DNA of 38,447 nt from Anaerolineae bacterium (GTDB taxonomy: Bacteria; Chloroflexota; Anaerolineae; Epilineales; JAANWY01): positions 1 through 38,447 of the forward strand of contig JBHHTZ010000002.1 of assembly GCA_046753605.1 (NCBI GenBank), given 5' to 3'. Below, piece by piece: positions 3,901-31,500 of this stretch. Within the stretch, counting starts at the first letter, position 1, and each line of letters starts with the position of its first letter. The notes beneath the pieces were generated by a model that was not told where the DNA came from, did no database searches, and saw only the letters and a list, made by a program, of their open reading frames with translations. The position numbers and the translations under genes are program-made.

Positions 3901-5455
3901 CGAACCGGCTGATGCCGTACGCCCGGCCGCTGACCCCGCCGGTGCCCATCCACATCACGCTCCCCTGTCCTGACCCCCCTGAAGCGACGCCGGCCACCAT
4001 GACCTGCACGCGGTCTCCCGCCAGACCATTGCCGGTGGTGATGGGCTCGCCGGGCACCGGATTCTTGTCGTTCCAGGTGTCGTCCCGCCGGTTCCCGGGG
4101 GTCCCATTGTGATCCAGGACCGAGATGCCTCGGCCCCAACCGTTGAGACTTCGATACGTACTGAACCACACCGTGTTCCCCCATTCGGGATCGTCTGGTG
4201 GGCCAAAAGCGATGGCATCTACGAAGTTGGTTTCAAGGCCATCAGCCGTAGTGAATCGATCGCGATCGGGACGCAAGATAGTCGCATCCCGCCGAAAGAC
4301 GAGAACACCCCGGCCGCGCATGGCGGCCCAGATATAGCCGAGCGTGTCCATCCGCAACTGCGTCACGACACACCCAAACTGGCTGTTTTCCTCACAGTTC
4401 CACGTCTCCCAGGTGTCATCATCCGTCTCGGGGGTGCCGGCATGGTCGAGCCGGCTGAGACCGCCGTGAGCCTCGACCCACTGGCCCGGGATATTCTCAT
4501 CAGGTTGCTCGAAGAGCCAGTGCTGGCGAGTGGCCACCCAAATCCGGTTGCCGGGCACCGGCAGGATGTCAAGAATATTGTTGGACGCCAGGCCGAGTAT
4601 CACCTCGCCACGCCGCCTGGTGAGGGTATTCTCCAGCGTGTAGGTGTGCAGCCACACGTCGTCACCCGGCTCCAGCGTGCCCTGGGTGTCCAACTGGCTG
4701 AGCCCACCTCCCACGTAGGCCTCCAGCTCGGGGTCCCAGTACTGCGCCGAGCCAACCCACACGTGGCCGGCCTCGTCCAGCGCCACAGCCGTAACCTGGT
4801 TCGAGGGGAGACCGCCGTCCGTGCTTTGCTGCGTATAGGTGTACCAGATGTCATCAGCCTGGTCGGCGGTGCCGTTGTCATCCAGCACACTCAAGCCTCC
4901 GTCGGTGGCAAACCACTTGTGGCCGTGCGAGTCGATAGCGATGTCGTACACCGTGTTGCCGCCCAGACCGCTTTGGGGCTTCAGAAACTGGACGTAAGAG
5001 CTGTCGGTGGTATTCCAGCGGACGACGCCGCCAGCGCGGGTGCCGGCCCATATAACAGTGTGCCCCGAGGTCTCTCCCGAGCTTGTCGAAGCGGTGTCCT
5101 GATCCCCGCTCCGGGCCTGTCGAGGGGCTTGGCGAAGGGGGCCTGACGAAGGGTCGCCCTCGACTTCCAGAGCCAGGATGTCATCCCCGTTAGCGTACGT
5201 GTACCAGTGGCCTGTAGGGAGTGAGGGGGACCCGGTCTGGGCGGTGGAAGGCGTTGGTTGCAGCAAAAGAGGAAGAGACAGGAGCAGCGACAGGCTGAGC
5301 AGGAGGAGCGCGACACAAAGCCCAGGCGGACGAATAAACTTGCCCGCCTGAGTGGGTTCGCCACCAGAACACTTCCCCCGGCCAGGCCGGGGGAAGTGTT
5401 GTCTCATTCCACCTGGAGCGCTATGGCTGGCCAGGGCAGGCGGGAGGCAGCCCAT
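914..5455 (-). CDS. P1: secreted multidomain protein. Signal peptide, about 12-14 Reg_prop-type propeller blades, PT linker, 82-aa 4-Cys domain, second PT linker, BNR/Ycf48-like propeller.
   Basis: 1513-codon ORF. Candidate starts are ATG 5455 (GAGG 9 nt upstream, overlaps the G1 stop by 35 nt) or ATG 5407. Hydrophobic LCVALLLLSLSLLLSLPLLL segment. Repeated blades such as VYDIAIDSHGHKWFATDGGLSVLD, VTAVALDEAGHVWVGS...GGGLSQLD and IEVVAVGPDGDVWIGTNGWGLFRF. SPQFDCGGWC...ACESHVEC domain. Asp-box-like TNDGGDTW and TLDGGNHF in the C-terminal 320 aa. Confidence 0.85.
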   Translation of the reverse strand: MGCLPPALASHSAPGGMRQHFPRPGRGKCSGGEPTQAGKFIRPPGLCVALLLLSLSLLLSLPLLLQPTPSTAQTGSPSLPTGHWYTYANGDDILALEVEGDPSSGPLRQAPRQARSGDQDTASTSSGETSGHTVIWAGTRAGGVVRWNTTDSSYVQFLKPQSGLGGNTVYDIAIDSHGHKWFATDGGLSVLDDNGTADQADDIWYTYTQQSTDGGLPSNQVTAVALDEAGHVWVGSAQYWDPELEAYVGGGLSQLDTQGTLEPGDDVWLHTYTLENTLTRRRGEVILGLASNNILDILPVPGNRIWVATRQHWLFEQPDENIPGQWVEAHGGLSRLDHAGTPETDDDTWETWNCEENSQFGCVVTQLRMDTLGYIWAAMRGRGVLVFRRDATILRPDRDRFTTADGLETNFVDAIAFGPPDDPEWGNTVWFSTYRSLNGWGRGISVLDHNGTPGNRRDDTWNDKNPVPGEPITTGNGLAGDRVQVMVAGVASGGSGQGSVMWMGTGGVSGRAYGISRFGLTTGAFEGRLTTAVSGIASNYVTAIAFGEAGTRWANQVWVGTGHRRERRYGVGALLLNTQGTLDAEDDTWSQFTKEGTDDDGQPPWTGLAGNNVVALEVDGSHVWFGTREATWDSSRREYTDGGLSVFDGDHWAIRTVENTGGESAGLRSNSVTALAVGCSGELWIGLGNLQDSTGAGIDILATADDPFNPVTDIWWDPFRFPPLPSNLITGIVPDCSRRQLWVSSAPYFTGARIQGGGVGAYDYETAQWTVYTKADGIQSYVETGITGDARSIAVGPDGTVWVGTWGTTDMSRKDVIRSWPYVPAVVNWYRGGAWSYEVFEHDGWTSSIAVDATGGVWAGTSRGGVDTDQDGQEDQAARKTAGGIKLARDGAEWLSLSPANSRLVSGDIEVVAVGPDGDVWIGTNGWGLFRFHPTEPISPTPTSTSTPAPPGPTATGSPSSTPTGTETPAPPSSTATGSPSSTPTSTETPAPSSPTATSSPSSTPTGVVTQQPATPTATPTVRVPRRVYLPMVVSNRAGHLPTATATPSAGISPQFDCGGWCGSGSTPEMRQQTITSDRPVDDWRVYLNGWIIGILPEEAPSYAVIEAPVGSHVRVEALFRGEWLVACESHVECLLPTVTSSSTSTPTEAPPTETLTRTPSPTGTPSPTPTLTTTPTIRPTTTPSSTPTVTPTVTPTPEPPPTGVWCQSTSTNPACRQVNIPQFPQRDLHDITFTDALNGFIVGEEGFIARTNDGGDTWRWDTLGSMTLRDIFMVDARVGFIVADGETIFRTLDGGNHFLRMKMPSDMLGRDEDFWSVYAFSANEAWALGHHDGVILYWDGQRWDFGIGIRWTGLPYTDLFMPAPDQGWAITADGYIYAFKGGWTESPLLRAAGPLRTITMYSPTEGWAAGGDGVLVRYFNGRWTESLVSGAYDGGGITGLHVHTPTDVWAAAAIGSDERADGAIYRYRGHQWEQVAYTYTAQLNDIWMDDTLSNGWVVGNNGLVMRYVISSH
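1850..2053 (-). other. second Pro/Thr/Ser-rich linker of P1 (absent from P2 and P3)
   Basis: Translation LLPTVTSSSTSTPTEAPPTETLTRTPSPTGTPSPTPTLTTTPTIRPTTTPSSTPTVTPTVTPTPEPPPTG. Confidence 0.8.
2392..2656 (-). other. first Pro/Thr/Ser-rich linker of P1
   Basis: Translation HPTEPISPTPTSTSTPAPPGPTATGSPSSTPTGTET...TPTATPTV. Contains the 3 x 63-bp tandem repeat. Confidence 0.8.
2444..2632 (-). repeat. in-frame tandem repeat, 3 x 63 bp (21-aa units PAPPGPTATGSPSSTPTGTET / PAPPSSTATGSPSSTPTSTET / PAPSSPTATSSPSSTPTGVVT)
   Basis: Plus-strand units start at 2444, 2507 and 2570. Each opens gt(c/t)gaggaggggctgc(t/c)tgtcgc. Read directly from the sequence. Confidence 0.9.
5058..5160 (-). repeat. REP-like element array inserted in frame in blade 1 of P1 (about 32 extra codons relative to P3)
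   Basis: Contains gagcttgtcgaag (5079-5091) plus degenerate copies gggcctgtcgagggg and cctgacgaaggg. P1 reads EGDPSSGPLRQAPRQARSGDQDTASTSSGETSGHTV where P3 reads only QGDT. Confidence 0.7.
5368..5400 (-). repeat. 33-nt perfect GC-rich palindrome (16-nt arms aacacttcccccggcc / ggccgggggaagtgtt around one central base)
   Basis: Read directly. Lies 21 nt downstream of the G1 stop on the minus strand and inside the first codons of P1 (encodes QHFPRPGRGKC). No U-tract follows. Confidence 0.9.
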
Positions 5456-8400
5456 CAGGACCGACCTCTACCAGGAATCCGCCGTCGAATAGCGGGAAGG
5501 CTTCGAAAGCCTTGGACTCGTCGCCTGGGATGTCTGGATCAGACAGAACGCGACCGACGCGCTCCACCGCCACGGCCCCCAGGGCTACCCCTACGCCTTC
5601 CTGAGTCGGGTCACCGCCCTGCTGATTGGTGTAGGTGGCCGAGATCACCAGCGATCCCAGGAAGCCTGGTGGGATAATACCCCATTCGTCCAGATTGATG
5701 TACTCCACCTGTTTCTCATTCAACTTCTCGCACACGTAGTCGATCAGCCGGTTCTGATCGTAGATGAAGATGACGAAGTCGGTGAAGCCGGGATGGGGGT
5801 TCAGGTTCTGAATGGCCAACTCCGTGGACACGCCCCGGTTGCGCTTGGCCGCCAGCGGAACGGAGAGCACGCCGGTACCGCGGAATCCTCCCCGGCCGGG
5901 CCCCAGTTGCCAGTCATAGGAGCCCATCTCCTGCAGGGCGTTGTATAGGACCGCCTCCTGGCGCGAGGTCTTGGCCGGGTCGGTGTACTTCTCCAGCATG
6001 ACCACCGACAGGACGCGTGGGGCCGAGATCGCCGGATCACCCGGTGAGAACCAGTTCTGGGACTCGACGCGGGCCGAACCGACCCAGTTGCCCGGCAGGC
6101 CGGCAATCATCGGCAGGAAGAAGGTCTGGGAGCCGCGCGGACAGATCCAGTCAACGACGGTCTTGATGACGTCGCCACTATTGTCCAGGAAGTAGACCTT
6201 CACCTTGGCGTTGTACGTCGAGCTCAGGTTCTGCACCTGGATGCTGGTCTCCCAGCCCTGGTGCTCGCGGTAGATCAGCGGCGCGTAGTTCACCTGGGTG
6301 CCCAGGCTGAAGTTTAGAGGGTCATCTTGACCCACGTACACGTCAGCCGGCACGCCGTGGTAGGCGCCGAAGTGGTTGGCGCCCAGCGTATCTATAATCA
6401 CCCCCAGCGGCTGCGAGGCCGACAACCACGCTGAGCCCTGCCAACCAGGCCCTACGACTTCGTTCGGGTCAAATGGATAGGACTCGCCAGGGGCCAGGGA
6501 CAGGATGTCCCACACCACCGGCCGGATGCAGTCCCCCTGGCGCTGGAACCACAGCTCCACGGACGTGCACTCTTCACCCGAGTTCTGGACATTGATGATG
6601 CTGTTCATGCCGAAGTAGTCGGCCCAGACCAGAGGCGCGTAGTAGGCGAACCCGCCGGCCCGTGGGTCACGGAACCCCTCGCGGTCGGTGGAGATGCCTA
6701 CGTAGGCCGCACTGCTGTCCAGGTTGGGATCGACCACGTCCGGACACGTCCGGTTGACTGTGACAGCCAGCGGTTCGCCCGTGTGGGCACCGAAGTCAAG
6801 GACCAACTGCTCCCCCGGGAAATCGCCAATGGGGCCGAAGTAGGTGCCGCTCTCGCGATACGCCCGGTCAAACAGCAGCCACTCGTCGTGATTCTGCCGG
6901 ATCAACGGGAATAGCCGGCCACACGCCATGTCAGCGAAGATACGCTCGTTCCCGCGCTCATCTGTCACCAGGTCGGTCGCGTTCAGGGAGTACATGATGC
7001 CGGACCTGGCCCCTGCCGGCAGCAATCGGTTGGTGAAGGTCCAGGCACTGCCGGGGCGCAGGAGCCCGGTGCACTCGACCTTGAGCGGCCCAAAGGCCTG
7101 CGGCGGGCAGAATCCCGGTTCGCCCCACAGTACCAGCAATGCCTTGGTAAACTCGTTCCCCACATTCTGGACCTGGATCCAGGTCTCGCACTCGTCGGTG
7201 TTGATGGCCGGCAACTGAAGCCGCCAGTCCACGCCCTTGCACGGCGACTGACGCGACACCTCGAACCAGGTGGGGTCATCGTCGTCCCGAGGGTACTCGT
7301 CGTCGAAGCGCGGTCCGTCGAAGTGCGGTCCCTGGACGAAGTTCGTAGGCTCGACGCCGGCTGGGATCTCCGGCCAGCCCGGAGTCTCGGACCACCAGTA
7401 GACGAGACCAGCAGTGCCGGCATGGTTGTTGGCCTGGCGGTTGCTGGTAAAGTATTTGTTGGTGTCCGTGGGGTCGAACTGTGGGAACCGCTGGTCGAAC
7501 AGATCGATCTCGTTATAGTCCACCCAACCGTGGTTGAGGACGATGGTTTTCCCGCAGTGCACGCTGAACCCTGGCCCTGCTTCCATGTCTTTGATCCGCA
7601 CCTGGTAACGCACGCGCAGGGAGAAGGTGACAGGGATGGGCGGGTCATAAGTGACGCCGTTGAAGCGCAGCAGCTCGCCCTTGGGCGGGATGGCCAGCCT
7701 GGTAGCCACGCGGACCTCGTCGTCGCCCGTGTTGTTGCCCAGCGTGATCTCTCCGGGCAGCACGATGGCCGAGGGGTCGGTGATCTCAATCCAGGCGCCA
7801 CCGATCGCCGGCGCCTGTGTGCGGAGCAGGAGATCGTCGCCGAAGGCCAGGTCTGGTGGCTGCACGTCGGCATCAATGATGCGGCCGGTGACCGGATCAC
7901 GTCCGGAGACGTGGATGGCGGCGGTGACGCTGCCGTTGATCAGCTTCGCCGGCACCCACGGGTGATCCGGGTCGTCGTTGATGTAGTTGTACAGCCCATC
8001 GTAGAACACGACCCCCGTGGCCGAGATGGCGCCGGTATTGGAGATGTTAACCGTGTACTCGACGATGTCGCCGGCGGTCGGCTCGCCGTCCCCGTCGTGG
8101 TCATCGAAGATGCTCCAGTCCTTGGTGGTGTCTTCCAGCACCGGCAGGGCCAGGGTATCATGGAGCAGATCGGTGTCGCAGATGAGATTGGGGTCGAGAT
8201 CGTTGCAATAATCATCGCCGGAGGGCTCAATGCCAGGCAAGGGGGTGCTGTACTTGGTGCTGGGCACCGCATCCACCCGCGCCCGATTGGTGCCCAGGGC
8301 GATGATCTGGTTGTTCCCGGCCGGGAAGTCCACCGTGAAGCTGCGGATGATCAGGATGTGGTCGTAGTCGTCCGGCGTGCCCTTCGGGGCCAGGACGGCC

Positions 8401-10808
8401 ACTTCGGGCTCGGTCGTGGCGATGGTGATGGTCTGGGCCTCGTCAGCGCCGGCCACGGTGATGGTGCCCCGCAGCGGCGGCTGGCTCGGGTCCACGACAG
8501 TGAAATTGGTAGTCGCCGCGCGGTAGATAGCTGCATCGGACGGGTCCTGCAGCGTGATGGAGTGGAGCCACGTGTCGCCCTCGTTGGTGATGGTGTAGCA
8601 GTAGGTGAGCTCGTCGCCAGGCAGCGTCAGGATGTCGTCGGCGCTGTAGGCAGCACAGCGTTCAGCCTCCGTCAGGCCATCCGTGGTGACGTCGATGCCT
8701 CTGGCCGGGCTGCTGCGGACGTACACCTTCTTGTCCACCTTGACCGCAGGCGTGACCAGCAGCGTTTGCTCGACGAAAACGTTGTTGCTCAGGTTCGAGT
8801 CCGGCGTCGGGGTGTAGCCGTGGGGCCAGGGATCCGTGCAGGCCAGGCTGCCAGTCTGGGTCGGGCAGATGTTGCCAGGGACGGTGCCCACCTCCACCCG
8901 GTTCTCCACAAAGCCGATGTCCGGCGCCACGTTGGCGTCCACGCGCACGCGGATGGTCAGGGTCCGCGTCGTGGGCAGTGATGGGTTGGCGGGATTAGTC
9001 AGATCCAGGTCATCGCGCCGGCCATCGTTGCCGGCAATCTGGCCCCAGTCCACGATGACCACGCCATCGTCACGGAATCGGATACCGAGGGCGCCCGTGG
9101 GGGAGCCGGTAGTCGTGATCGCTGTCAGCGGATCGCTACCTACCATGTCCAGGCTGGCATAGACCGGCAACGTGTCGGTCAAGATCACTCGGCCGGCATC
9201 CGACGGGCCCAGGTTCTCAATGGTGAGGTAGTAGGTATAGACGAAGCTGTTGGTGACCGGGTCGAAGGTCAGGTAGCCGTCGTCGGGTGTGGGGTTGGGG
9301 ACATCGGTCTTGCTGACGGCCAGGTCAGCCTGGCTGGTGACGCCCGTCAACTCGTGGTCGGTGTTGTTGGCCGCGTAGAAATCGCTGATGTCTGTGGCCT
9401 CGGTGATGACGACCGTGTCGGTGATGGTCACCAGGTTGCCCACAGCATCCGGCTCGCTGTAGATGTCTGGCTCTTTGACCAGGTTACTCCGGGCATAGGC
9501 CACGATGCGGAAGGAGCGCTCCTCATCCGGCATCAGATCGTCCCGCAGCAAGCCGTTAATGCGGAAGTCCGTCAGGGTGACGGTGTTGGCCGGTTGGTCG
9601 TAGGTGCAAACCGGCACCTCATCTGGATCCACCGGCTCGCAGCGGACGAAGACCAGGCCGCTGGGCAGCGTATCGGTGATGTCTGTAGCGCGCGCCTTGG
9701 ACGGCCCCAGGTTCCGGGCCGTGATGTCGTAGGTCACTTCCTCGCCGGCCAGCACCGGGTCGGGGATGTCGGTCTTGGTGATCTGCAGGTTGGCGACCGC
9801 GTTCACGGTTGCTGCCAGGTCGAACGAGTTCGGCGTGGTTGGGTCAGTAGTGTCGCTCGACACCTGGACATTGTTGGTCGCGGTGCGCACGTTGTCCCCA
9901 TCGTCGGGGTCGTCAATGGCGGCATCCGGCCGGGTGCGCGCGACCACCTCTATCTGCTGGGTGGTGGTAGCCGGCACGGTGTTCAGCGGGCAGGTAATGA
10001 GCAGCGGGTTGGCGGCGTTGGCCCAACAGCCGGCCGGCACGCTCTCTACGAAGTCGAACTTGGCCGGCAGGGTGTCAGTGATGATCACGGTCTGGGCATC
10101 CGACGGGCCAGTGTTGGTGACGGTGATTATGTACTTGATCAACTCACCGGCGGTCACCTGATCCGCGGTGGGTGTGAGGATGTCCTGGAAGGTATTGGTG
10201 TCGAAGCCGGTGGCCACGTCGCCCTCAGACGTCTTGGACACAGAGAGGTCGGCCTCGGCTTGTACTGTGACGAAGGCGTGGTTCTCGTTGTCAGGGGGAT
10301 TATCCTCGGTGCCAAACTGCCAGGCTCGCACGTCGTGGTCCAGGAGCGTGCCATCCGGGACGTCCGGGAGCACGTACACGGTGACGTTGACCGTCTCGGT
10401 CCTACCTGTGGGCATGTTGCCCAGGGAACAGATGGACGGGTCGCTGGGATCGCCCTCGGTGCCGACCTCACAAGGGCCGACAGAGCTTGAGATGCTCTGG
10501 ATCACCACGCCGGCCGGCGCCCGGTACTCGAACACCACGGCCTCCGCGTCCGGCTGGCTGCTGGCGTTGTTTGTTACCTCCACGGCGAACGAGTGGTTGG
10601 TACCGGCCTTGGTCGTAGTTGGTGGCGACGTCGAAAAGGTCACCTCCAGGTCGCCGAAGGCGCGGGCGGTCAAGACGTTTAGAGCCAGCGCCAGCACGAG
10701 GACGGCGACGATGGCCGGCGCGGCGAGCAGGAGAATGCGCCGGCCTGGCCAGGCATGATATGGAAGATGATTGCCGGGATGTTTATGGTTAGGGGCGCGA
10801 CTATTCAT
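5421..10808 (-). CDS. G1: giant cell-surface protein. N-terminal signal/anchor, multiple DUF11-type repeats, conserved 608-aa Cys-rich C-terminal head.
   Basis: 1795-codon ORF. ATG 10808 has GAGGAGGAG 8 nt upstream. N-terminal RRILLLAAPAIVAVLVLALALNVLTARA. DUF11-like repeat openings EADLSVSKT, VANLQITKTD and QADLAVSKTD, with VTNTGPSDA / ARNLGPSKA / IENLGPSDA cores. Acidic DDHDGDGEPTAGD loop. Stop TAG at 5421-5423. Confidence 0.9.
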   Translation of the reverse strand: MNSRAPNHKHPGNHLPYHAWPGRRILLLAAPAIVAVLVLALALNVLTARAFGDLEVTFSTSPPTTTKAGTNHSFAVEVTNNASSQPDAEAVVFEYRAPAGVVIQSISSSVGPCEVGTEGDPSDPSICSLGNMPTGRTETVNVTVYVLPDVPDGTLLDHDVRAWQFGTEDNPPDNENHAFVTVQAEADLSVSKTSEGDVATGFDTNTFQDILTPTADQVTAGELIKYIITVTNTGPSDAQTVIITDTLPAKFDFVESVPAGCWANAANPLLITCPLNTVPATTTQQIEVVARTRPDAAIDDPDDGDNVRTATNNVQVSSDTTDPTTPNSFDLAATVNAVANLQITKTDIPDPVLAGEEVTYDITARNLGPSKARATDITDTLPSGLVFVRCEPVDPDEVPVCTYDQPANTVTLTDFRINGLLRDDLMPDEERSFRIVAYARSNLVKEPDIYSEPDAVGNLVTITDTVVITEATDISDFYAANNTDHELTGVTSQADLAVSKTDVPNPTPDDGYLTFDPVTNSFVYTYYLTIENLGPSDAGRVILTDTLPVYASLDMVGSDPLTAITTTGSPTGALGIRFRDDGVVIVDWGQIAGNDGRRDDLDLTNPANPSLPTTRTLTIRVRVDANVAPDIGFVENRVEVGTVPGNICPTQTGSLACTDPWPHGYTPTPDSNLSNNVFVEQTLLVTPAVKVDKKVYVRSSPARGIDVTTDGLTEAERCAAYSADDILTLPGDELTYCYTITNEGDTWLHSITLQDPSDAAIYRAATTNFTVVDPSQPPLRGTITVAGADEAQTITIATTEPEVAVLAPKGTPDDYDHILIIRSFTVDFPAGNNQIIALGTNRARVDAVPSTKYSTPLPGIEPSGDDYCNDLDPNLICDTDLLHDTLALPVLEDTTKDWSIFDDHDGDGEPTAGDIVEYTVNISNTGAISATGVVFYDGLYNYINDDPDHPWVPAKLINGSVTAAIHVSGRDPVTGRIIDADVQPPDLAFGDDLLLRTQAPAIGGAWIEITDPSAIVLPGEITLGNNTGDDEVRVATRLAIPPKGELLRFNGVTYDPPIPVTFSLRVRYQVRIKDMEAGPGFSVHCGKTIVLNHGWVDYNEIDLFDQRFPQFDPTDTNKYFTSNRQANNHAGTAGLVYWWSETPGWPEIPAGVEPTNFVQGPHFDGPRFDDEYPRDDDDPTWFEVSRQSPCKGVDWRLQLPAINTDECETWIQVQNVGNEFTKALLVLWGEPGFCPPQAFGPLKVECTGLLRPGSAWTFTNRLLPAGARSGIMYSLNATDLVTDERGNERIFADMACGRLFPLIRQNHDEWLLFDRAYRESGTYFGPIGDFPGEQLVLDFGAHTGEPLAVTVNRTCPDVVDPNLDSSAAYVGISTDREGFRDPRAGGFAYYAPLVWADYFGMNSIINVQNSGEECTSVELWFQRQGDCIRPVVWDILSLAPGESYPFDPNEVVGPGWQGSAWLSASQPLGVIIDTLGANHFGAYHGVPADVYVGQDDPLNFSLGTQVNYAPLIYREHQGWETSIQVQNLSSTYNAKVKVYFLDNSGDVIKTVVDWICPRGSQTFFLPMIAGLPGNWVGSARVESQNWFSPGDPAISAPRVLSVVMLEKYTDPAKTSRQEAVLYNALQEMGSYDWQLGPGRGGFRGTGVLSVPLAAKRNRGVSTELAIQNLNPHPGFTDFVIFIYDQNRLIDYVCEKLNEKQVEYINLDEWGIIPPGFLGSLVISATYTNQQGGDPTQEGVGVALGAVAVERVGRVLSDPDIPGDESKAFEAFPLFDGGFLVEVGPDGLPPACPGQP
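5424..7247 (-). other. G1 C-terminal head: four tandem modules sharing xPL(I/V)...(T/S)xIxVQN...F...LxPxxS...GSA; family not recognised
   Basis: Module openings are LQLPAINTDECETWIQVQNVG, YYAPLVWADYFGMNSIINVQNSG, NYAPLIYREHQGWETSIQVQNLS and LSVPLAAKRNRGVSTELAIQNLN. About 12 conserved Cys. Confidence 0.75.
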
Positions 10809-10954
10809 GAGTGATTCTCCTCCTCAAACAACGTTCTAAGGGCCGGCGCCAGGCCGGCTGAAGCGCTGATTTCGCACTTTTGGCCTGAATTTGACAACCC
10901 AAGAGCAGGCTGAGTCGTACATCGGACTTCGGGCATCGGATGGGTGCATCTGCC

Positions 10955-12814
10955 TCATGGACACGGCTGGCCCCACTGCGCACTCACAAGCATGATATCC
11001 TGCACGGTGATAATACCATCATCTGGATGCAGGTCGAAGTAGAGCTCGTAGTTCGGGGTAAGCGGGTTGCCATCCGGGTCCGGGTTGGCGGCCGTGAGGT
11101 GCCAGCGGCTGGCAATGGCCACCACGTCATCGATGTCTACCGCTTCATCTCCATCAAAATTGTAGCAACCTGCCGCGATGGCGGCGGCGACAGGGTCTTC
11201 AAAGGCTCCAATGTCACAGGTTGTCCCCTTCGGTCGGGCGACGCCGCGCTGGTCGGTCGCCGGCGCGCCTGCGCAGGTGCCGGCATCAACAGCCGGGCTC
11301 CCGACGAGGAGCGCATGGGTTTCGGTGTTACCAGGTGCATTAAGTTGCAGCGGACCGAGGAGCGGATCGGTATTGACCAGATCGGTTGGTTCCGTGAAGC
11401 CACAACTGCTAGCGCTTTCCAGATTGTAGCCCTGGGACGTGACGACGCTCTTGGTTGTTGTCCCGGTGCCTCCGCCAACAATCGTGTTCTTGAACGTAGC
11501 GCTGCCCAGGTTGTGGATCATGTTTATGCCGACATTGTTGAAGATGGTGCTGTTGACCACCTGCAGAGTGGCACCGGCATTGTTGCGGATGGCTGCACCG
11601 TAGCCGGCGGGGGCCTGATTGCCGGTGATGGTTACGTTGGTGAGCGACATAGGGCCGCGATTGTAGATGCCACCCCCGCCCATGCCTTGCAGGGCGAGTG
11701 TGTTGCCGCTGATGGTGCTTTTAGTGAGCGTGGCGGTGGAGGCGTCGCTGGAATGGAACAGCCCGCCGCCTCCCTTGCGGGCTGTGTTATCGCGAATAGT
11801 GCTCTGGTCCATGGTCAACGCACCCGTGTTGTAGATGCCTCCACCAAAGGAACCAGGTGCGTCGAGTACGTTGTCGCGGATGGTACTGGTGGTGAGCGTG
11901 AGCGTGCCACCGCCGCTGAAGATGCCGGCACCCTGCCGGTTTGCGGTATTTCCGCTGACCGTGCTGTCGGTCAGCGTCAGTGAGCCAAGGGTGGCGATGC
12001 CACCCCCTCGTCGCTCCACAGTGTTGTCACTGACAGTGACGTTGTTCAACGTCGCCGTGCCCGAATCCAGATTGAAGATGCCGCCGCCAGCATCCCGCGC
12101 CGAGTTATCGCTGATGGTGCCACCGCTCATTGTCAGGGAGCCCTGATTGGCAATGCCACCGCCTGCGGACTCGTCGGCTGCGTTGTCTTTGACGTCGACG
12201 TCGGTCAGAGTCAGCGTACCCATGTTTCGGATGCCGGCACCTATTCCCGTGACACCGCCACCCACGATGACGACAATGACCGATGCAGTATCCCCGTTCT
12301 GGATCGTCACATCCTGGATTGTTACGGTGGCACCCGGAAGAATGTCGAACACCCGGTCGAAGGTGAGACCGTCAACGATTGTGGTAGCTGCGTTTGCGCC
12401 AATTATGGTCATGTCGTCGGTGATGTCCAGATCGCCGGTATCGGCCTCATCCTCACCGGTGCCGACACGGGTCAAAGTGTAGACTCCAGCCGGCAAGGTA
12501 ATGGCATCGGGACCGACCGTGGCGTTGGCCTGCTGTATGGCCGCACGCAGGGTGCATATGCCAGTCAAGAAGGGGGCGCTGCCGGTATCGCAGAGGCCGT
12601 CCGCAAGGCCCCCATCGGGAAGGTCGGCGACACTGTTGACAAGGAAGGCCGCAGCGTGGGCCACTGGCACTGATCCCGAACCCACGTTCAGCGCTATCCC
12701 GGCCATCAGCACAGCGAGGAAAAACAGATGTAATCCTCGGACGCAGGTGGAACTCAACCTGGCCTTATTGTTGGTAGGCTTGCGGTTCATTCTCGGGTGC
12801 ATAAGGTGATTCAA
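10955..12814 (-). CDS. H1: secreted CSLREA-motif / right-handed parallel beta-helix / choice-of-anchor Q protein with dockerin-like tail
   Basis: 619-codon ORF. The first in-frame start, TTG 12814, is 3 nt after the N1 stop; ATG alternatives are 12802 and 12790. Signal peptide ends VPVAHA. CTLRAAIQQAN motif. About 12 turns of GGGIxNxGxLT(L/M)xxSTIxxNxA. SQGYNLE..SCGF..DPLLGPLQLN..THALLVGSPAVDAG..DQRGVARP..CDIGAFE. Confidence 0.9.
   Translation of the reverse strand: MNHLMHPRMNRKPTNNKARLSSTCVRGLHLFFLAVLMAGIALNVGSGSVPVAHAAAFLVNSVADLPDGGLADGLCDTGSAPFLTGICTLRAAIQQANATVGPDAITLPAGVYTLTRVGTGEDEADTGDLDITDDMTIIGANAATTIVDGLTFDRVFDILPGATVTIQDVTIQNGDTASVIVVIVGGGVTGIGAGIRNMGTLTLTDVDVKDNAADESAGGGIANQGSLTMSGGTISDNSARDAGGGIFNLDSGTATLNNVTVSDNTVERRGGGIATLGSLTLTDSTVSGNTANRQGAGIFSGGGTLTLTTSTIRDNVLDAPGSFGGGIYNTGALTMDQSTIRDNTARKGGGGLFHSSDASTATLTKSTISGNTLALQGMGGGGIYNRGPMSLTNVTITGNQAPAGYGAAIRNNAGATLQVVNSTIFNNVGINMIHNLGSATFKNTIVGGGTGTTTKSVVTSQGYNLESASSCGFTEPTDLVNTDPLLGPLQLNAPGNTETHALLVGSPAVDAGTCAGAPATDQRGVARPKGTTCDIGAFEDPVAAAIAAGCYNFDGDEAVDIDDVVAIASRWHLTAANPDPDGNPLTPNYELYFDLHPDDGIITVQDIMLVSAQWGQPCP
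10958..11167 (-). other. dockerin-like C-terminal module of H1 (two Ca-loop/helix segments)
   Basis: The pair YNFDGDEAVDIDDVVAIASRW and FDLHPDDGIITVQDIMLVSAQW matches the duplicated DxDxDGxIxxxD-hydrophobic pattern of type I dockerins. Confidence 0.55.
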
Positions 12815-12817
12815 AGC

Positions 12818-14779: not shown

Positions 14780-14975
14780 CGGATTTCAATAGCGGTGGCT
14801 GTTGTTAGGCTGCAACGCGGAGTCAGCGCGGAGCGCCTCGTGCTATCAGCAAGATATTCCCTGCCTGGTGAATGGTTTTAACTTGAGTGCTGTAACGCAA
14901 CGCGGGCGCGAAGGATACGGGCACTGACCGCGAATTTGCCCATTTTGTGAAAAACTCGTGAATTCCCGAATCGTC

Positions 14976-15005
14976 TTGACCCCCGCCATGCCTTTCATGT
15001 ATACT
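14976..15005 (+). promoter_or_regulatory. sigma70-like promoter of S1: TTGACC (14976-14981), 18-nt spacer, TATACT (15000-15005)
   Basis: Read directly. Lies about 40 nt upstream of the S1 SD/ATG, in the 267-bp divergent spacer between N1 and S1. Confidence 0.6.
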
Positions 15006-15046
15006 GCAGGCAGTTCATTTCAATTGAGAATGTGAGGAGGTCACAA

Positions 15047-23990: not shown

Positions 23991-24136
23991 GAGTGATTCT
24001 CCTCCTCAAACAACGTTCTAAGGGCCGGCGCCAGGCCGGCTGAAGCGCTGATTTCGCACTTTTGGCCTGAATTTGACAACCCAAGAGCAGGCTGAGTCGT
24101 ACATCGGACTTCGGGCATCGGATGGGTGCATCTGCC

Positions 24137-25996
24137 TCATGGACACGGCTGGCCCCACTGCGCACTCACAAGCATGATATCCTGCACGGTGATAATACCA
24201 TCATCTGGATGCAGGTCGAAGTAGAGCTCGTAGTTCGGGGTAAGCGGGTTGCCATCCGGGTCCGGGTTGGCGGCCGTGAGGTGCCAGCGGCTGGCAATGG
24301 CCACCACGTCATCGATGTCTACCGCTTCATCTCCATCAAAATTGTAGCAACCTGCCGCGATGGCGGCGGCGACAGGGTCTTCAAAGGCTCCAATGTCACA
24401 GGTTGTCCCCTTCGGTCGGGCGACGCCGCGCTGGTCGGTCGCCGGCGCGCCTGCGCAGGTGCCGGCATCAACAGCCGGGCTCCCGACGAGGAGCGCATGG
24501 GTTTCGGTGTTACCAGGTGCATTAAGTTGCAGCGGACCGAGGAGCGGATCGGTATTGACCAGATCGGTTGGTTCCGTGAAGCCACAACTGCTAGCGCTTT
24601 CCAGATTGTAGCCCTGGGACGTGACGACGCTCTTGGTTGTTGTCCCGGTGCCTCCGCCAACAATCGTGTTCTTGAACGTAGCGCTGCCCAGGTTGTGGAT
24701 CATGTTTATGCCGACATTGTTGAAGATGGTGCTGTTGACCACCTGCAGAGTGGCACCGGCATTGTTGCGGATGGCTGCACCGTAGCCGGCGGGGGCCTGA
24801 TTGCCGGTGATGGTTACGTTGGTGAGCGACATAGGGCCGCGATTGTAGATGCCACCCCCGCCCATGCCTTGCAGGGCGAGTGTGTTGCCGCTGATGGTGC
24901 TTTTAGTGAGCGTGGCGGTGGAGGCGTCGCTGGAATGGAACAGCCCGCCGCCTCCCTTGCGGGCTGTGTTATCGCGAATAGTGCTCTGGTCCATGGTCAA
25001 CGCACCCGTGTTGTAGATGCCTCCACCAAAGGAACCAGGTGCGTCGAGTACGTTGTCGCGGATGGTACTGGTGGTGAGCGTGAGCGTGCCACCGCCGCTG
25101 AAGATGCCGGCACCCTGCCGGTTTGCGGTATTTCCGCTGACCGTGCTGTCGGTCAGCGTCAGTGAGCCAAGGGTGGCGATGCCACCCCCTCGTCGCTCCA
25201 CAGTGTTGTCACTGACAGTGACGTTGTTCAACGTCGCCGTGCCCGAATCCAGATTGAAGATGCCGCCGCCAGCATCCCGCGCCGAGTTATCGCTGATGGT
25301 GCCACCGCTCATTGTCAGGGAGCCCTGATTGGCAATGCCACCGCCTGCGGACTCGTCGGCTGCGTTGTCTTTGACGTCGACGTCGGTCAGAGTCAGCGTA
25401 CCCATGTTTCGGATGCCGGCACCTATTCCCGTGACACCGCCACCCACGATGACGACAATGACCGATGCAGTATCCCCGTTCTGGATCGTCACATCCTGGA
25501 TTGTTACGGTGGCACCCGGAAGAATGTCGAACACCCGGTCGAAGGTGAGACCGTCAACGATTGTGGTAGCTGCGTTTGCGCCAATTATGGTCATGTCGTC
25601 GGTGATGTCCAGATCGCCGGTATCGGCCTCATCCTCACCGGTGCCGACACGGGTCAAAGTGTAGACTCCAGCCGGCAAGGTAATGGCATCGGGACCGACC
25701 GTGGCGTTGGCCTGCTGTATGGCCGCACGCAGGGTGCATATGCCAGTCAAGAAGGGGGCGCTGCCGGTATCGCAGAGGCCGTCCGCAAGGCCCCCATCGG
25801 GAAGGTCGGCGACACTGTTGACAAGGAAGGCCGCAGCGTGGGCCACTGGCACTGATCCCGAACCCACGTTCAGCGCTATCCCGGCCATCAGCACAGCGAG
25901 GAAAAACAGATGTAATCCTCGGACGCAGGTGGAACTCAACCTGGCCTTATTGTTGGTAGGCTTGCGGTTCATTCTCGGGTGCATAAGGTGATTCAA
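24137..25996 (-). CDS. H2: identical copy of H1 (dockerin-like tail at 24140-24349)
   Basis: The 619-aa translation is identical to 10955..12814. Confidence 0.9.
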   Translation of the reverse strand: MNHLMHPRMNRKPTNNKARLSSTCVRGLHLFFLAVLMAGIALNVGSGSVPVAHAAAFLVNSVADLPDGGLADGLCDTGSAPFLTGICTLRAAIQQANATVGPDAITLPAGVYTLTRVGTGEDEADTGDLDITDDMTIIGANAATTIVDGLTFDRVFDILPGATVTIQDVTIQNGDTASVIVVIVGGGVTGIGAGIRNMGTLTLTDVDVKDNAADESAGGGIANQGSLTMSGGTISDNSARDAGGGIFNLDSGTATLNNVTVSDNTVERRGGGIATLGSLTLTDSTVSGNTANRQGAGIFSGGGTLTLTTSTIRDNVLDAPGSFGGGIYNTGALTMDQSTIRDNTARKGGGGLFHSSDASTATLTKSTISGNTLALQGMGGGGIYNRGPMSLTNVTITGNQAPAGYGAAIRNNAGATLQVVNSTIFNNVGINMIHNLGSATFKNTIVGGGTGTTTKSVVTSQGYNLESASSCGFTEPTDLVNTDPLLGPLQLNAPGNTETHALLVGSPAVDAGTCAGAPATDQRGVARPKGTTCDIGAFEDPVAAAIAAGCYNFDGDEAVDIDDVVAIASRWHLTAANPDPDGNPLTPNYELYFDLHPDDGIITVQDIMLVSAQWGQPCP

Positions 25997-25999
25997 AGC

Positions 26000-27961
26000 C
26001 TATGGAAATGGAAGAATCCCGCCACCAACCTGCCGGCTGGAGCGCTGGTAGCGGTGATTCCACGTGTCGACGGTGAAGATATCGCTCTCCAGACCAACGT
26101 CATCCGGGTGGAGGCGATCAGCAGCGATGCCGGCCAGGGAATTGAATAGCCCCTCCTCGTCGCCGTAGTGACCAAACTGGTTCTGGAATTCATGATCGTC
26201 TGTATCGCCCTGTCGGAGCAGGTACATGATGCGATGGTTCCCGGTGTCTGCAACATGGAGGTCAACCAGCCGCGGAGCACATCCGTCGATGAAGCCCAGC
26301 ATGCTGTCCAGGCGAATGCCAACACCCACATCCTGGGGTGAGTGGAACTGAACTCCCGTCGTGTCACCCTGTGACGGAATGGCATCCCCGTAGCTGCCAA
26401 TCTCCTTCTTGAAGTCACCCTCTAGGCTGAAGGACTGTACCCGGTGGTTGTTGGTATCCGCGACGTAGACCCGGGCTTCCCAGCTCTCGATTTGGCAGAA
26501 GATTGGGGGCATGCCTCCGAGATCCTGTGGAGTCTCGATGGGGTCTACGTCAATGCCTTCCGGCGAGTTGAACTCGCCGTCCCCATCGCCGTAGTAGCCC
26601 CACTCACCATCATACTTGGGCGCCCCACCATTATTCTCGATCTTGAACCTCTGCACCCGATGGTTGCCTGTGTCGGCCACGTACACGTAGTAGTAGTCGC
26701 CTTGGGGGCCATCTGTGAGTCCCTGTGTGAGGTGCCAGGCGCTGGTTGCCACGCCGCTCGGCGACTTGAACCGTGCGTCCTCGGCGGGGTCTCCTTGACT
26801 GGGGATCGCGTCGCCGTAGCTGCCAAACTGTCCCTGGAAGTTGCCATCCGCGTCAAAGTACTCAATGCGGTGGTTCCCCGTGTCAGCCACGTAGACCACG
26901 GCGTCCGGTCCCACAACCACGTCCTCAGGCAGGTGGAATTCGCCGTCGCCGTCGCCGTAATACCCTATTTCACCCTTAAAAGTCAGGGCCGTCCCATCAG
27001 GCTCATACTCAAAGATCTGGACGCGGTGGTTGCCCGTGTCTGCAATGTAGGCACGGGCTTTCAGCTCATCCAGCCCCATCCCGCCACCAAATCCACCACC
27101 CATACTACCCTCGGCACCAATGCCGCCTTTGATCTGCACGTTCTTGACCACAAAATAGTTCGTGCAGTCCCCCGGTACTTCCGGATCCCCGCAAAGTTGA
27201 TTGCCAATGAGCCCCCATCGGAGCTGGATGATCGAAAAGGCATAGTCGGACAAGCTGACTTCCGCCTTTTGCCCACTGCCCGGCGTCAATGACTGTCCTG
27301 GTCCGGGATGAAGGTCAACCCAGCCGCTGCCATTGATCGAGATGTCAACCCAGCCTCGAGGAGCCGTTGAGTCCAGGTCATATTCAAACGTGAGCGTGAT
27401 CGGTTTGGGGATGTCAAAGAGGTTGATGCGCGGCGAGATGAGGTAGAACGTCCCATTATAATCCGCATGGCGAGCCTGCGTGCCAAGCAGTTGCCACAGG
27501 CCCATTTGCTGCCATCCGTCCATGAGGGTGATCATTGGCTGCCAGTCAATGACGGAGGAGGTATCGATGCCCTCAGGGAGCCGGAACGCTGCATTCTCGC
27601 CAGGGTCCCCCGGGCTGAGGGTCGTGTCGCCGTAGGTGCCCCCGACAAAGTCAACGTTACTGCTCTCGCAATTCAAGTCGGGCGATGCAGCCAGTGCCGC
27701 TGCGTTGACCGCGCCGGGTCCGGTGGCGTTCACCGGCAGGGAGTGCAAGCGAGACGCCTGAGCGCCGACCGGGGCCGGCTGAGAATCGCCGAGGAAGCCT
27801 AGCAACACACCCAGCAGGAAGCTTGCGAGGCTCACCGCGACCAGGGCGGCTGCACGCCGTCGAAGATATGCTATTGCAGATTGCCCAGGGGTATGCGTGG
27901 GGCGCGCACTCACTGTGGCTGGCCTCCCCGCCCAAACCTCGCGCCACATCGGCCGAGGCAT
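26000..27961 (-). CDS. N2: identical copy of N1
   Basis: The 653-aa translation is identical to 12818..14779. Alternative GTG start at 27913. Confidence 0.9.
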   Translation of the reverse strand: MPRPMWREVWAGRPATVSARPTHTPGQSAIAYLRRRAAALVAVSLASFLLGVLLGFLGDSQPAPVGAQASRLHSLPVNATGPGAVNAAALAASPDLNCESSNVDFVGGTYGDTTLSPGDPGENAAFRLPEGIDTSSVIDWQPMITLMDGWQQMGLWQLLGTQARHADYNGTFYLISPRINLFDIPKPITLTFEYDLDSTAPRGWVDISINGSGWVDLHPGPGQSLTPGSGQKAEVSLSDYAFSIIQLRWGLIGNQLCGDPEVPGDCTNYFVVKNVQIKGGIGAEGSMGGGFGGGMGLDELKARAYIADTGNHRVQIFEYEPDGTALTFKGEIGYYGDGDGEFHLPEDVVVGPDAVVYVADTGNHRIEYFDADGNFQGQFGSYGDAIPSQGDPAEDARFKSPSGVATSAWHLTQGLTDGPQGDYYYVYVADTGNHRVQRFKIENNGGAPKYDGEWGYYGDGDGEFNSPEGIDVDPIETPQDLGGMPPIFCQIESWEARVYVADTNNHRVQSFSLEGDFKKEIGSYGDAIPSQGDTTGVQFHSPQDVGVGIRLDSMLGFIDGCAPRLVDLHVADTGNHRIMYLLRQGDTDDHEFQNQFGHYGDEEGLFNSLAGIAADRLHPDDVGLESDIFTVDTWNHRYQRSSRQVGGGILPFP

Positions 27962-28157
27962 CGGATTTCAATAGCGGTGGCTGTTGTTAGGCTGCAACGC
28001 GGAGTCAGCGCGGAGCGCCTCGTGCTATCAGCAAGATATTCCCTGCCTGGTGAATGGTTTTAACTTGAGTGCTGTAACGCAACGCGGGCGCGAAGGATAC
28101 GGGCACTGACCGCGAATTTGCCCATTTTGTGAAAAACTCGTGAATTCCCGAATCGTC

Positions 28158-28187
28158 TTGACCCCCGCCATGCCTTTCATGTATACT
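28158..28187 (+). promoter_or_regulatory. promoter of S2 (TTGACC-N18-TATACT), copy of 14976-15005
   Basis: Lies inside the perfect repeat. Confidence 0.6.
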
Positions 28188-28228
28188 GCAGGCAGTTCAT
28201 TTCAATTGAGAATGTGAGGAGGTCACAA

Positions 28229-28561
28229 ATGAAGAAGACTGTGATGGTTCTGCTGTCCGTCTTGTTGATCGCGCTCGTACTTGTGGTGGGGAGTACCCGA
28301 TGGGGCGGTAACGCCCTGGCTCAATCGCCGGGCAAGCAGGTTGTTGTCTTGAGGTGTTCGGTCAGCGCCCCCGTCTCTTCCATCCCCATCGTCATGTCTG
28401 CCAGTGGAAGTGCCGGCGCTCCGGTTGTCATCAGAGGGACGACCTGCGCGCAGGCCCTGGCAGACCTGCTGAGCGATGGCTTCGGGATACAGGCCGTCGA
28501 GTCTGCCGGCCGAGATAATGACACGGACCTGTACTACACTCTGGCGTCGGGTGGCCCGTGA
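28229..28561 (+). CDS. S2: identical copy of S1
   Basis: Same SD/ATG context. Its stop abuts the P3 stop at 28562-28564. Confidence 0.8.
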   Translation: MKKTVMVLLSVLLIALVLVVGSTRWGGNALAQSPGKQVVVLRCSVSAPVSSIPIVMSASGSAGAPVVIRGTTCAQALADLLSDGFGIQAVESAGRDNDTDLYYTLASGGP

Positions 28562-31500
28562 CTAGCACCCAACATCTGACTCGCAGGCCAGGAGCCACTG
28601 GCCCTGGAACAGGGCCTCGATGCGAACGTGGTATCCCACGGGGGCCTCGACGACGGCGTAAGTTGGGTATTCTTCTGACAGTAACCCGATCGCCAGGCCG
28701 TTCACGTACATACGCCAGTCGTCCACGGGTTGGCTCGATGTCACGGTCTGCTGTCTCATGTCCGCCGAGCCTCCCAATTCACACCACCCTCCACAATCGA
28801 ACTGAGGGGAGGTAGCAGGCGGCGTTGGCGCTGCAGCGAGCTGGCTCACCCAGTTGCTGGCCACCAGCGGCAAATAGAGTTGCCGGGACGAGGTTCCCCC
28901 AGGGGTCGCTGTCGGTGTCGGCGTAGGTGTCGGTGTAGGGGGCAGCGGCGTAGCAGTGCTGGTGGGCGTGCTGGTGGGTGTTGATGTCGGAGCAGGCGAG
29001 GTCGGCGTGCTCGTCGGGGTTGGCTCGGTCGGTTCCTGGCCCGCGTGGAAGCGCATCAAACCCCATCCGTTGGTGCCGATCCAGACATCACCATCCGGCG
29101 CTGCAGCGATGACTTCGACGTCGCCGCTCACCAGCGGCGAATTGGCCGGCGACCAGCTCGCCCACCCGGCCCCGGCACGCGTGAGCTTGATCCCGCCGGC
29201 AGTCTTTTTGATCTCCGTATCCTCTGCCTGGCCATCCCGATCGCCGTCCATGCCACCGCGCGAAGTGCCGGCCCAGACGGTGCCGGCGGCATCCACGGCG
29301 ATAGACGAAACCCAGCCATCGTGCTGGAAGGAGGCGGAATCCCAGGCGCCACCCCGGTACCAGTTGATCGTCGCCGGAACGTAGGGCCAGTTGGAGATAT
29401 CCGTACTCGTGGTGTTGGTCATGCCCCAGGTGCCGGCCCAGATCGCCCCCTCGGGACCAACGGCGATGCTTCGGGCGTCGCCGGTGACGTTCCGACTGGC
29501 GTATGATTGCAGGCCATCGGCCGTCGTGTAGGCTGTCCAGGCCTGGGCAGCCTCGTCATACCGGCCCACGCCGCCCCCCATGTTGCCGAAACCGGCAAAG
29601 TGAGGCGCACCGGACACCCATACCTGGCCCTGGCCGCAATCTGGCGCAATGTCAGTTATGAGGTCCGAAGGAATCGCGGGGTATCTGAATGGGTTCCACC
29701 AGGTATCGTTCTCCAGGTTGTGGGGATCGCCCCCCGTGTCCAGCACATCGATGCCGGCCCCCTGGTTCTCCTGCAAACTCCCCAGCCCAATCCACACCTC
29801 CCCATGGCACCCCACCGCCAGCGCCGATACCCCGTTCGACCGCAATCCCGTTGACTCACCCCCCGTACTCTCCACAGTGCGAACGGTCCACCCCTCACCG
29901 TCGTACACGCTCAACCCCCCGTCGGTGTACCCATGGGCCTCCGAATCCCACATCGCCTCCCGCGTGCCGAACCACACGTTGTCCCCAGCCACGGCCACCG
30001 CCACCACGTTGTCCCCAGCCAGCCCCGTCCACGGCGGCTGCCCATCGTCGTCGGCGCCGGCCTTGGTGAACTGCGTCCACGTATCATCGTCCCCCCCCAG
30101 CGTGCCATGGGTGTCCAGTAGCAGGGCGCCCGCCCCATACCGCCGCTCCCACCGATTGCCCGTGCCCACCCACACCTGGTTCTCCCAGCGCGTGCCGGCC
30201 TCCCCGAAGGCCACATCGGTGATGTAGTTGCTGGGGATGCCCGTGGCAGCCGTGCTCAGCGGGTCGTCGAAGGCCCGCCTGGTCAGATCGAAGGGGCTGA
30301 TGCCGTACGCCCGACCACTGATCCCGCCGGTCCCCATCCAGATGACGTCGTTGCCGGCCAGCATGGCCTGCACCCGGTTGCCCGCCAGACCATCCCCCGT
30401 GGTGAGGGGCTGGCCGGCGGTCGGGTTTTTGACGTTCCACGTGTCGTCGCTGCGGTTGCCGGGCGTGCCGCCGTGATCCAGCACCGACACGCCGTACCCC
30501 TGGCCGTTGAAGCTGTGGTAGCTGCTGAACCAGACGGCGTTGGCCCATTCGGGGTCATTCGGCGGGCCAAAGGCGATGGCATCCACGAAGTTGGACGCCA
30601 GGCCATCGGCGGTGGTGAAGCGATCGCGATCCGGGCGCAGGCTGGCGGCGTCGTAGCGGAAAGTGAGCACGCCCCGGCCGCGCATGGCGGCCCAGATATA
30701 GCCCAGGCTGTCCATGCGCAGTTGGGTGACCACGCACCCAAACTGGCTGTCATCCTCGCAGTTCCAGCTCTTCCAGGTGTCATCGTCCGGCTCCGGCGTG
30801 CCGGCGTGGTCCAGCCGGCTGAGACCACCATGGACCTGGACCCACCGGCCGGGGATGTTCTCGGTGGGTTCTTCGTACAGCCAGTGCTGCCGGCTGGCGA
30901 CCCACACGCGACCCTGTCCTGAGCCTGTCGAAGGGTTGCCCGGCACCGGCAGGATGTCGGTGATGTTGTCGGATGCCAGCCCCAGAATCTGTTGACCCTG
31001 CTGGACGGTGAGGGTGTTGTCCAGGGTGAAGGTGTGGAGCCACACATCGTCACTCGGGTCCAGGGTGCCGTGTGGGTCCAGCTCTGTCAGGCCACCACCG
31101 GTGTAGGCTTCTGCATCGGGGTCCCAGTACTGGGAAGAGCCGATCCACAGGCGGCCGGCCTCATCGACGGCCACAGCGGTGACCTGGTTGGAGGGGAGTT
31201 GGCCGCCGGTGTTCTGCCGGGTGTAGGTGTGCCAGGTGTCGTCGGCTTTGCCGGGAGTGCTGTTGTCATCCAGCACGCTGAGGCCGCCGTCGGTGGCCAG
31301 CCACTTGAGGCCGTGGTCATCGATGGCGATGTCGTAGACTATGTTGCCGGCCAGGCCGTCCTGGGGCTTGAGGAACTGGACGTAGGAACCAGTGGCCGTG
31401 TCCCAGCGCACAACGCCGCCGGCCCGCGTGCCGGCCCACAGGGTGTCACCCTGGCGGGCCAGAGCCAGGATGTCGTCGCCGTTGGCGTAGGTGAACCACT

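Follow-up and report, generated by a model that had tools for sequence, protein, structure and literature searches.

The contig JBHHTZ010000002.1 of an Anaerolineae bacterium (Chloroflexota; assembly GCA_046753605.1), a metagenome-assembled genome (MAG), was analysed over its entire length of 38,447 bp, which we call the window. It carries a locus whose predicted products all look like secreted or surface proteins, and within which a cassette of 13,182 bp occurs twice, head to tail. On balance, we favour the interpretation that this cassette (the body of a propeller gene P, the genes S, N, H and G, and the leader of the next P gene) underwent segmental duplication by unequal recombination, and that the junction is rather old while the arms have been homogenised. 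The exact repeat, an in-frame chimeric P gene at its centre, the blocks and private changes of the junction and the lack of mobile-element features in the window are observed; from them we infer how the recombination took place, how old the junction is relative to the arms, and that the arms were homogenised.

An exact direct repeat joined by a chimeric propeller gene

Comparison of the window with itself at an offset of 13,182 showed that positions 5208-18130 are identical to positions 18390-31312 over 12,923 bp, with no mismatch and no N. The two copies are adjacent, in direct orientation and separated by a constant period of 13,182 bp, and the second-longest identical run at this offset measures only 32 bp. 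In bins of 500 bp, identity is 1.000 over 5501-18000 and 0.22-0.35 in the unrelated flanks; values of 0.61-0.80 appear only where paralogous P genes align in register. An exact repeat of 12.9 kb cannot have arisen by chance. The original prediction had announced a perfect direct repeat of this period, and it is confirmed over its whole length. The same holds for the bounding mismatches that it gave on the + strand (5207 g against 18389 c, and 18131 a against 31313 g), for the spacer of 259 bp (18131-18389) and for the recurrence, at +13,182 and with equal lengths, of every pair of open reading frames (ORFs) that it quoted (5421-10808 and 18603-23990; 10955-12814 and 24137-25996; 12818-14779 and 26000-27961; 15032-15379 and 28214-28561).

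The array sits between unique flanks on either side. Read along the - strand, the gene order of the window is a 2118-aa DUF11 protein, P1, S (itself on the + strand), N, H, G, P2, S, N, H, G, P3 and finally a convergent gene at 16-903. The first copy of the repeat by coordinate (copy A, 5208-18130) contains the body of P2 from codon ~170, N, H, G and the first ~82 codons of P3 with their upstream region, all on the - strand, as well as S on the + strand. The other (copy B, 18390-31312) contains the body of P1, S, N, H, G and the first ~82 codons of P2 with the corresponding upstream region.

Both ends of the repeat thus fall inside P genes, all encoded on the - strand: P1 and P2 at one end, P2 and P3 at the other. 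P1 (28562-31774, 1070 aa) is the upstream, 'short' paralogue, a Reg_prop beta-propeller protein with its own unrelated leader (31572-31774). P3 (914-5455) is the downstream, 'long' paralogue, which has an extra C-terminal BNR/Ycf48-like domain; its called product starts at 5407 and measures 1497 aa. Between them, P2 (15380-18637) encodes a chimeric two-component-regulator-propeller protein (Reg_prop, Pfam PF07494). Its longest ORF corresponds to 1085 aa, and by analogy with the called P3 product its start is likely at 18589 (1069 aa). The leader of P2 and the intergenic region upstream of it match those of P3 at 100% identity down to position 18390; from 18130 downstream, the body of P2 matches P1 at 100% identity, the ORF being uninterrupted and in frame. 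At the protein level, residues 1-82 align with P3 and residues ~170 to the end with P1. P1 and P3 share 55-83% aa identity along the body, as paralogues, and only 51% nt and ~41% aa identity upstream of 18390. The identity between P2 and P3 stops exactly where nucleotide homology between P1 and P3 starts, as predicted for recombination between paralogues.

Adjacent direct copies, ends located in like-oriented homologues and a hybrid junction, the anatomical features that define tandem duplication by non-allelic homologous recombination, are therefore all present. Both repeat ends had been placed in paralogous P genes in the original prediction, which preferred unequal homologous recombination or gene conversion between paralogues to transposition; the anatomy of the locus supports this placement and is that expected of unequal homologous recombination, P2 being an in-frame chimera in a window that has no space for a transposase, no inverted repeats of 40 nt or more and no tRNA. 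Moreover, a hybrid with the 5' part of P3 and the 3' part of P1 can only result from a duplication or from an excised circle, since a deletion would leave the reciprocal hybrid.

A circle formed by recombination of P1 with P3 would indeed bear the same junction between a P3 leader and a P1 body, and one could imagine that a mobile or extrachromosomal element of 13.2 kb, be it a composite transposon, an integrative element or an excised circle, had been placed twice in the chromosome by the assembly. We consider this highly improbable. Pfam and NCBIfam scans of the long genes of the window, on which all domain assignments given here are based, revealed no transposase, integrase or replication gene, and 97% of the window is occupied by 13 long genes for structural or surface proteins. 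No inverted repeats of at least 40 nt and no tRNA were found in the window, the ends of the repeat lie within homologous coding sequence without target-site duplication, and unique sequence borders the unit on either side. Transposition was rejected on these grounds, the widest intergenic gap (252 bp) being also too small for a transposase gene. Amplification mediated by a composite transposon or by insertion sequences (IS) was likewise discarded, since the domain scans gave no transposase and no inverted repeat of at least 40 nt was present. The window contains no match to an Rfam family or structured RNA.

A diverged junction between identical arms

The spacer of 259 bp lies on the - strand within P2, where it covers codons ~83-169 in frame. 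A four-way alignment that included the P3 orthologue (R3) of the nearest sampled lineage, termed R and described below, divides it into four blocks of alternating ancestry, making the margin of the identical tract a mosaic. The first block (18389-18344) is P1-like, with 95.7% identity to P1 and 78% to P3. It is followed by an in-frame inserted element without counterpart in P1 (18343-18261), which is 88% P3/R3-like and has suffered a 24-bp in-frame deletion, then by a mixed block (18260-18204; 80% to P1 and 82.5% to P3) and by a second P1-like block (18203-18131; 91.8% to P1 and 73% to P3).

Besides this mosaic, the spacer contains 19 sites at which P2 is unlike every other aligned sequence, and at 16 of them the remaining sequences agree with one another. 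The private status of two sites, 18260 and 18259, depends on the alignment (they are P1-like in a three-way alignment), so that the count ranges from 14 to 19. Sixteen private substitutions in 259 bp stand against none in the 12,923 bp of the arms (Fisher p = 3e-28). These changes are synonymous or mostly conservative replacements (V>L, V>I, V>T, G>E) that preserve the frame, and they resemble gene evolution rather than sequencing or consensus error. In the P1-like block the junction diverges from P1 by 8%, and in the element block it diverges from P3 by 12%; neither value is below the 6-7% that separate the organism from its relative R.

With its private changes and its deletion, the junction looks older than the arms, and homogenisation or a second exchange becomes more probable than a single fresh event. 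The spacer had been described in the original prediction as a unique mosaic; this is correct as far as the mosaic goes and incomplete, as 16 private substitutions (up to 19) and a 24-bp in-frame deletion are present in addition. Similarly, three causes had been offered there for the lack of divergence between the copies, namely a very recent event, concerted evolution or an artefact, and the first of these, as a single event, becomes the least likely in view of the private changes of the spacer.

One unequal crossover of P1 with P3 in the very recent past would nevertheless be the simplest way to obtain 12.9 kb without a single difference. Its odd junction might then stem from the same event, by patchy mismatch repair of a heteroduplex combined with error-prone synthesis, or might have been overwritten soon afterwards by a short conversion from a P paralogue located outside the contig. 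The interleaved P1 and P3 states in 18260-18204 do resemble patchy heteroduplex repair. In addition, P genes form multi-copy arrays in relatives (three copies in contig L030), which makes unseen donors plausible, and one of the private residues, the L in the motif GGLIRW, is shared with the homologues P0002 and P0004. However, heteroduplex repair cannot create states that are absent from both parents, and 16 such sites plus the 24-bp deletion are packed into 259 bp beside 12.9 kb of unchanged sequence. The P1-like block 18203-18131 alone carries six private changes and no P3-like site, and hence is not a mosaic left by repair. Public data yielded no donor-like sequence, the best match to the N-terminus of P2 having 60% aa identity. 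We therefore view a single fresh crossover as unlikely.

The scenario that we favour would begin with a single cassette flanked by a short P gene upstream (now P1) and a long P gene downstream (P3). Unequal, non-allelic homologous recombination between these flanking paralogues would have produced the array together with the hybrid P2, in which the promoter side and leader of P3 are joined to the mature body of P1 in an 'anti-Lepore' type of junction. This junction would not be brand-new: its 259 bp would have traded short patches with P1 and P3 and gained private substitutions as well as the 24-bp in-frame deletion. Meanwhile, identity or near-identity of the arms would have been preserved by repeated RecA-type unequal exchange or gene conversion, or else by one recent and long second exchange. 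Such homogenising exchange would stop ~130 bp short of the homology edge on either side, for lack of an anchor beyond it. As a consequence, the dosage of S, N, H and G would be doubled and a third propeller protein would be expressed from a position downstream of G.

In the tuf genes of Salmonella, conversion walks extend on average ~500 nt each way (PMC5485169). With walks of this size, homogenisation of 12.9 kb needs many events or unequal crossovers, and unequal crossover between units appears as the more plausible homogeniser. A bolder variant, which we advance only tentatively, is that the two-copy array is old and selectively maintained, the P2 junction being about as old as the split from the 93%-identical relative and the 12.9-kb arms being kept identical by continual unequal exchange.

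Two other origins of the junction were tried and rejected. A diversity-generating retroelement does not fit, as the window has no reverse transcriptase domain and the private changes (C>T, G>A, G>C, T>C, A>C and others) are not adenine-specific. The in-frame element of the spacer (18262-18334 in P2; 5056-5152 in P3) was considered as a hairpin or REP-like (repetitive extragenic palindromic) hot spot of recombination; its DNA folds no better than shuffled sequence (z = 0.17 and 1.35), and the count of a 12-mer motif in the window barely exceeds chance (7 against 2.1 expected). Short in-frame insertions rich in S, G, Q, R and L (SGPLRQA...STSSGETSGH, PSTGSGQG, STALRQAQDD) are present or absent at several positions among P paralogues and orthologues. 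They occur at 5056-5152 in P3, at 18262-18334 in P2, as PSTGSGQG in P1 and P2 (around codon 310 of P2), and in the homologues P0001, P0002, P0003 and P0020. They look like a small repeated element tolerated within coding sequence.

Assembly, haplotypes and relatives

A tandem repeat present in two copies and joined by unique sequence appears in a de Bruijn graph as a simple cycle, and an assembler that unrolls this cycle on the basis of coverage writes the repeat edge twice. Copies obtained by traversing the same edge twice are identical by construction, and small real differences between them are lost; the 'zero divergence' of the arms may thus be technical. The original prediction had taken the unique spacer as an argument against an assembler loop. 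This argument fails, because a repeat edge and a unique junction edge make up exactly the cycle that an assembler can walk twice. On the other hand, the junction edge itself could not have been built without real reads linking a leader of the P3 type to a body of the P1 type, so some genomes in the sample, at least, must carry the duplication.

Public assemblies of sequencing runs contain further versions of the locus. Look-ups of the exact S and N products retrieved Logan contigs of 1.8-4.5 kb from SRR29324588, SRR29324589 and SRR29324594 that match the cassette at 99.5-99.9%, the exact S product being called on three of them. Compared with 10302-17786 of the window, four Logan contigs (L035, L036, L037 and L038) reveal an alternative haplotype, with 12 single-nucleotide polymorphisms (SNPs) common to two independent runs (at 14777, 14782, 14795, 14801, 14802, 14806, 14828, 16873, 16914, 17480, 17492 and 17495) and different combinations on other contigs. 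This haplotype reflects either strain microdiversity or real differences between the copies that are hidden in the MAG contig. From the size and number of the Logan contigs, the MAG contig probably derives from short-read metagenomes holding more than one haplotype of the locus.

We therefore give some weight to a technical or population artefact, in which the junction is real in some DNA and the contig is unfaithful to any one genome, although we rate it well below an even chance. It could take two forms: slightly different copies may have been collapsed into one edge that was written twice, or the duplication may be confined to a subpopulation or a co-occurring strain, the dominant genome having a single cassette. 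The window is a complete MAG contig, and a second haplotype exists, which could come from a strain or from the other copy. Mixing of lineages or contigs at the locus is also visible in a stretch of ~3 kb that takes in N together with the 5' half of H (11634-14674 and 24816-27856), which differs from positions ~1100-4150 of the lineage R contig L034 at only 11 sites (99.6% identity) in a background of 93-95% and includes 1,145 bp of perfect identity. This stretch represents either a recent homologous exchange between lineages or a strain-chimeric metagenome contig. Against an artefact, the joining of a P3 leader to a P1 body needs a duplication or a circle, not a deletion, so that some genome has at least two units. 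Moreover, P2 is an intact ORF with gene-like substitutions, and none of the 13 genes of the window contains Ns or frameshifts.

Homologues of the locus come from Anaerolineae/Chloroflexota MAGs. The nearest sampled lineage, R, is represented by L034 (JGI 3300002231; 12,571 bp) and L032 (ENA ERZ4201062; 9,075 bp), two metagenome contigs of independent origin with 99.5-99.7% identity between them. They show the order P (3' end)-S-N-H-G-P3, as in the window, with 93-94% nt identity over G and P3; the P3 orthologue of L032 (P0001) has 93.9% nt identity. This shared order indicates that the P-flanked cassette is older than the split from R. The two copies of the cassette are 100% identical to each other and 93-94% identical to R over G and P3, an arrangement of similarities that a recent duplication would also give. 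In both R contigs, which are short-read contigs of 9-12.6 kb, a single path leads from G to P3, without a fork or a P2-type junction. More distant contigs (L030 and L031) have a short and a long P gene adjacent to each other, without N-H-G in between, and another (L001) has N-H-G without flanking P genes. Taken together, the arrangements in relatives suggest that a single cassette between a short and a long P gene is likely the ancestral state of the lineage.

Some features of the related contigs proved uninformative or peculiar to them. The representative of the G protein cluster (L039) was discarded as a guide to a fork between G and P3, since it is distant (83% nt identity) and has a different downstream sequence. 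A run of Ns in L032 (4480-4579, near the 5' end of P3) is a false scaffold gap rather than the signal of a repeat boundary, as its sides overlap by 55 bp and L034 bridges it. In L034, the N gene (1118-2954) is called as two products of 408 and 218 aa owing to a one-base indel relative to the window near 13410-13608; either the relative has a frameshift here or its contig was misassembled at this point.

Several points weigh against an old duplication with homogenised arms. The tandem arrangement and the 100% identity are those of an assembled sequence, and a window that is an entire MAG contig, together with Logan contigs of an alternative haplotype, would fit an assembler cycle walked twice. 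The two independent short-read R contigs offer no evidence of a duplication shared with R. No junction-bearing sequence was found elsewhere in public data: the N-terminal 260 aa of P2 have a best match of 60% aa identity, and full-length P2 as query gave no match above 68% identity. The exact P1 and P2 products are absent from the protein collection, which holds the N, G, P3 and 2118-aa products of the same contig. In addition, the private substitutions could have been imported from an unseen third paralogue rather than accumulated in place. Finally, from what is established for Salmonella and Escherichia coli, perfect 13-kb tandem repeats should often disappear by RecA-dependent recombination, and with such rapid loss an old junction requires selection for the two-copy state.

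A surface-protein locus and its counterparts

The remaining genes of the cassette and its flanks fit the picture of a locus for surface proteins. S (15047-15379, + strand; second copy 28229-28561) encodes a protein of 110 aa with a signal peptide and is convergent with P. N (12818-14731, - strand; second copy 26000-27913) encodes an NHL-repeat beta-propeller protein of 637 aa as called. The product of H (10955-12802, - strand; second copy 24137-25984), of 615 aa, combines a CSLREA N-terminus, a PMP/NosD-like beta-helix and a choice-of-anchor Q domain, and that of G (5421-10808, - strand; second copy 18603-23990) is a DUF11-repeat protein of 1795 aa. N and H are separated by a few bases only. 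If their longest ORFs are taken, P2 and P3 share 35 nt with the end of G (18603-18637 and 5421-5455); with the called start of P3 at 5407 (MRQHF...), 16 codons later, a short gap follows G instead of an overlap. From this spacing, N-H-G-P may form a single transcription unit. A 63-bp tandem repeat (3.1 copies, 79% matches) is located at 2438-2635, inside the Pro/Thr-rich linker of P3.

Upstream of P1 lies the gene of the 2118-aa protein (31956-38312, - strand), which has DUF11 repeats and an isopeptide-forming domain. Its last 1.8 kb (32001-33739) are 77-85% identical to the 3' end of G (5484-7249 and 18666-20431), so that a DUF11 C-terminus followed by a P gene is seen three times in the window, at a spacing of ~13.2-13.3 kb. 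This points to an earlier, diverged round of duplication of a DUF11-P gene pair.

At the opposite end, the 3' part of a gene on the + strand (16-903) faces P3 and forms the unique flank of the array. It is homologous to a gene for a PMT_2-type glycosyltransferase located after the long P gene in L029, and to an uncharacterised gene at the equivalent position in L033. A convergent gene 3' of the (long) P gene is in fact kept across relatives (L029 4040-7147, L031 13840-16011, L033 7603-9960); it is of the PMT_2/TMEM260 type in L029 and L031, and in the window and L033 it is so typed by nucleotide homology. The conservation of this neighbour suggests that the surface proteins of the locus may be glycosylated.

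The duplication is a known process in a new instance, in which non-allelic homologous recombination yields tandem segmental copies and a hybrid gene of the anti-Lepore type; concerted evolution probably came afterwards. RecA-dependent tandem duplications between direct repeats are classically those of rrn operons or IS copies in Salmonella and E. coli. The array shares with them its head-to-tail copies, end points in pre-existing direct homologies, a hybrid join point and the lack of transposition features. Unlike in rrn or IS duplications, the homologies are here protein-coding paralogues of ~75-80% identity, and the join point has diverged on its own later. Lepore and anti-Lepore fusion genes arise by unequal crossing-over between tandem paralogues, as in the human delta- and beta-globin genes. 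As in the anti-Lepore case, P2 takes its 5' part from the downstream paralogue and, in frame with it, its 3' part from the upstream one, and both parents are kept. In contrast to the globin example, the locus is bacterial, the duplicated interval contains four further genes, and the junction is a mosaic of several blocks instead of a single switch point.

Concerted evolution through gene conversion has been described for duplicated genes of bacteria such as tufA and tufB of Salmonella (PMC5485169); long-lasting prokaryotic cases (PMC6053082) and a PE_PGRS gene pair in mycobacteria (PMC1762029) are reported as well. The present locus resembles these systems in that the copies within the genome are identical while the orthologues of the nearest lineage are 6-7% apart, and in its sharp identity boundary with a diverged, mosaic margin. 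It differs from tuf in the tandem arrangement and in the length of the identical tract (12.9 kb as opposed to ~1 kb).

No new mechanism and no new class of system is opened by this duplication. For users of MAGs, it illustrates that an exact 13-kb repeat in a contig that probably stems from short reads needs validation at the read level before gene dosage or a 'recent duplication' is inferred. If real, the array shows cleanly, in a natural case, how a bacterial locus for surface proteins expands: flanking paralogues recombined, which doubled four genes and made a hybrid propeller gene. Its junction may also record the age of the duplication while the arms homogenise. Should the array prove to be old, it would represent a stable, concertedly evolving and possibly copy-number-variable surface-protein cassette in Chloroflexota, whose ~130-bp unconvertible margins would date the duplication.

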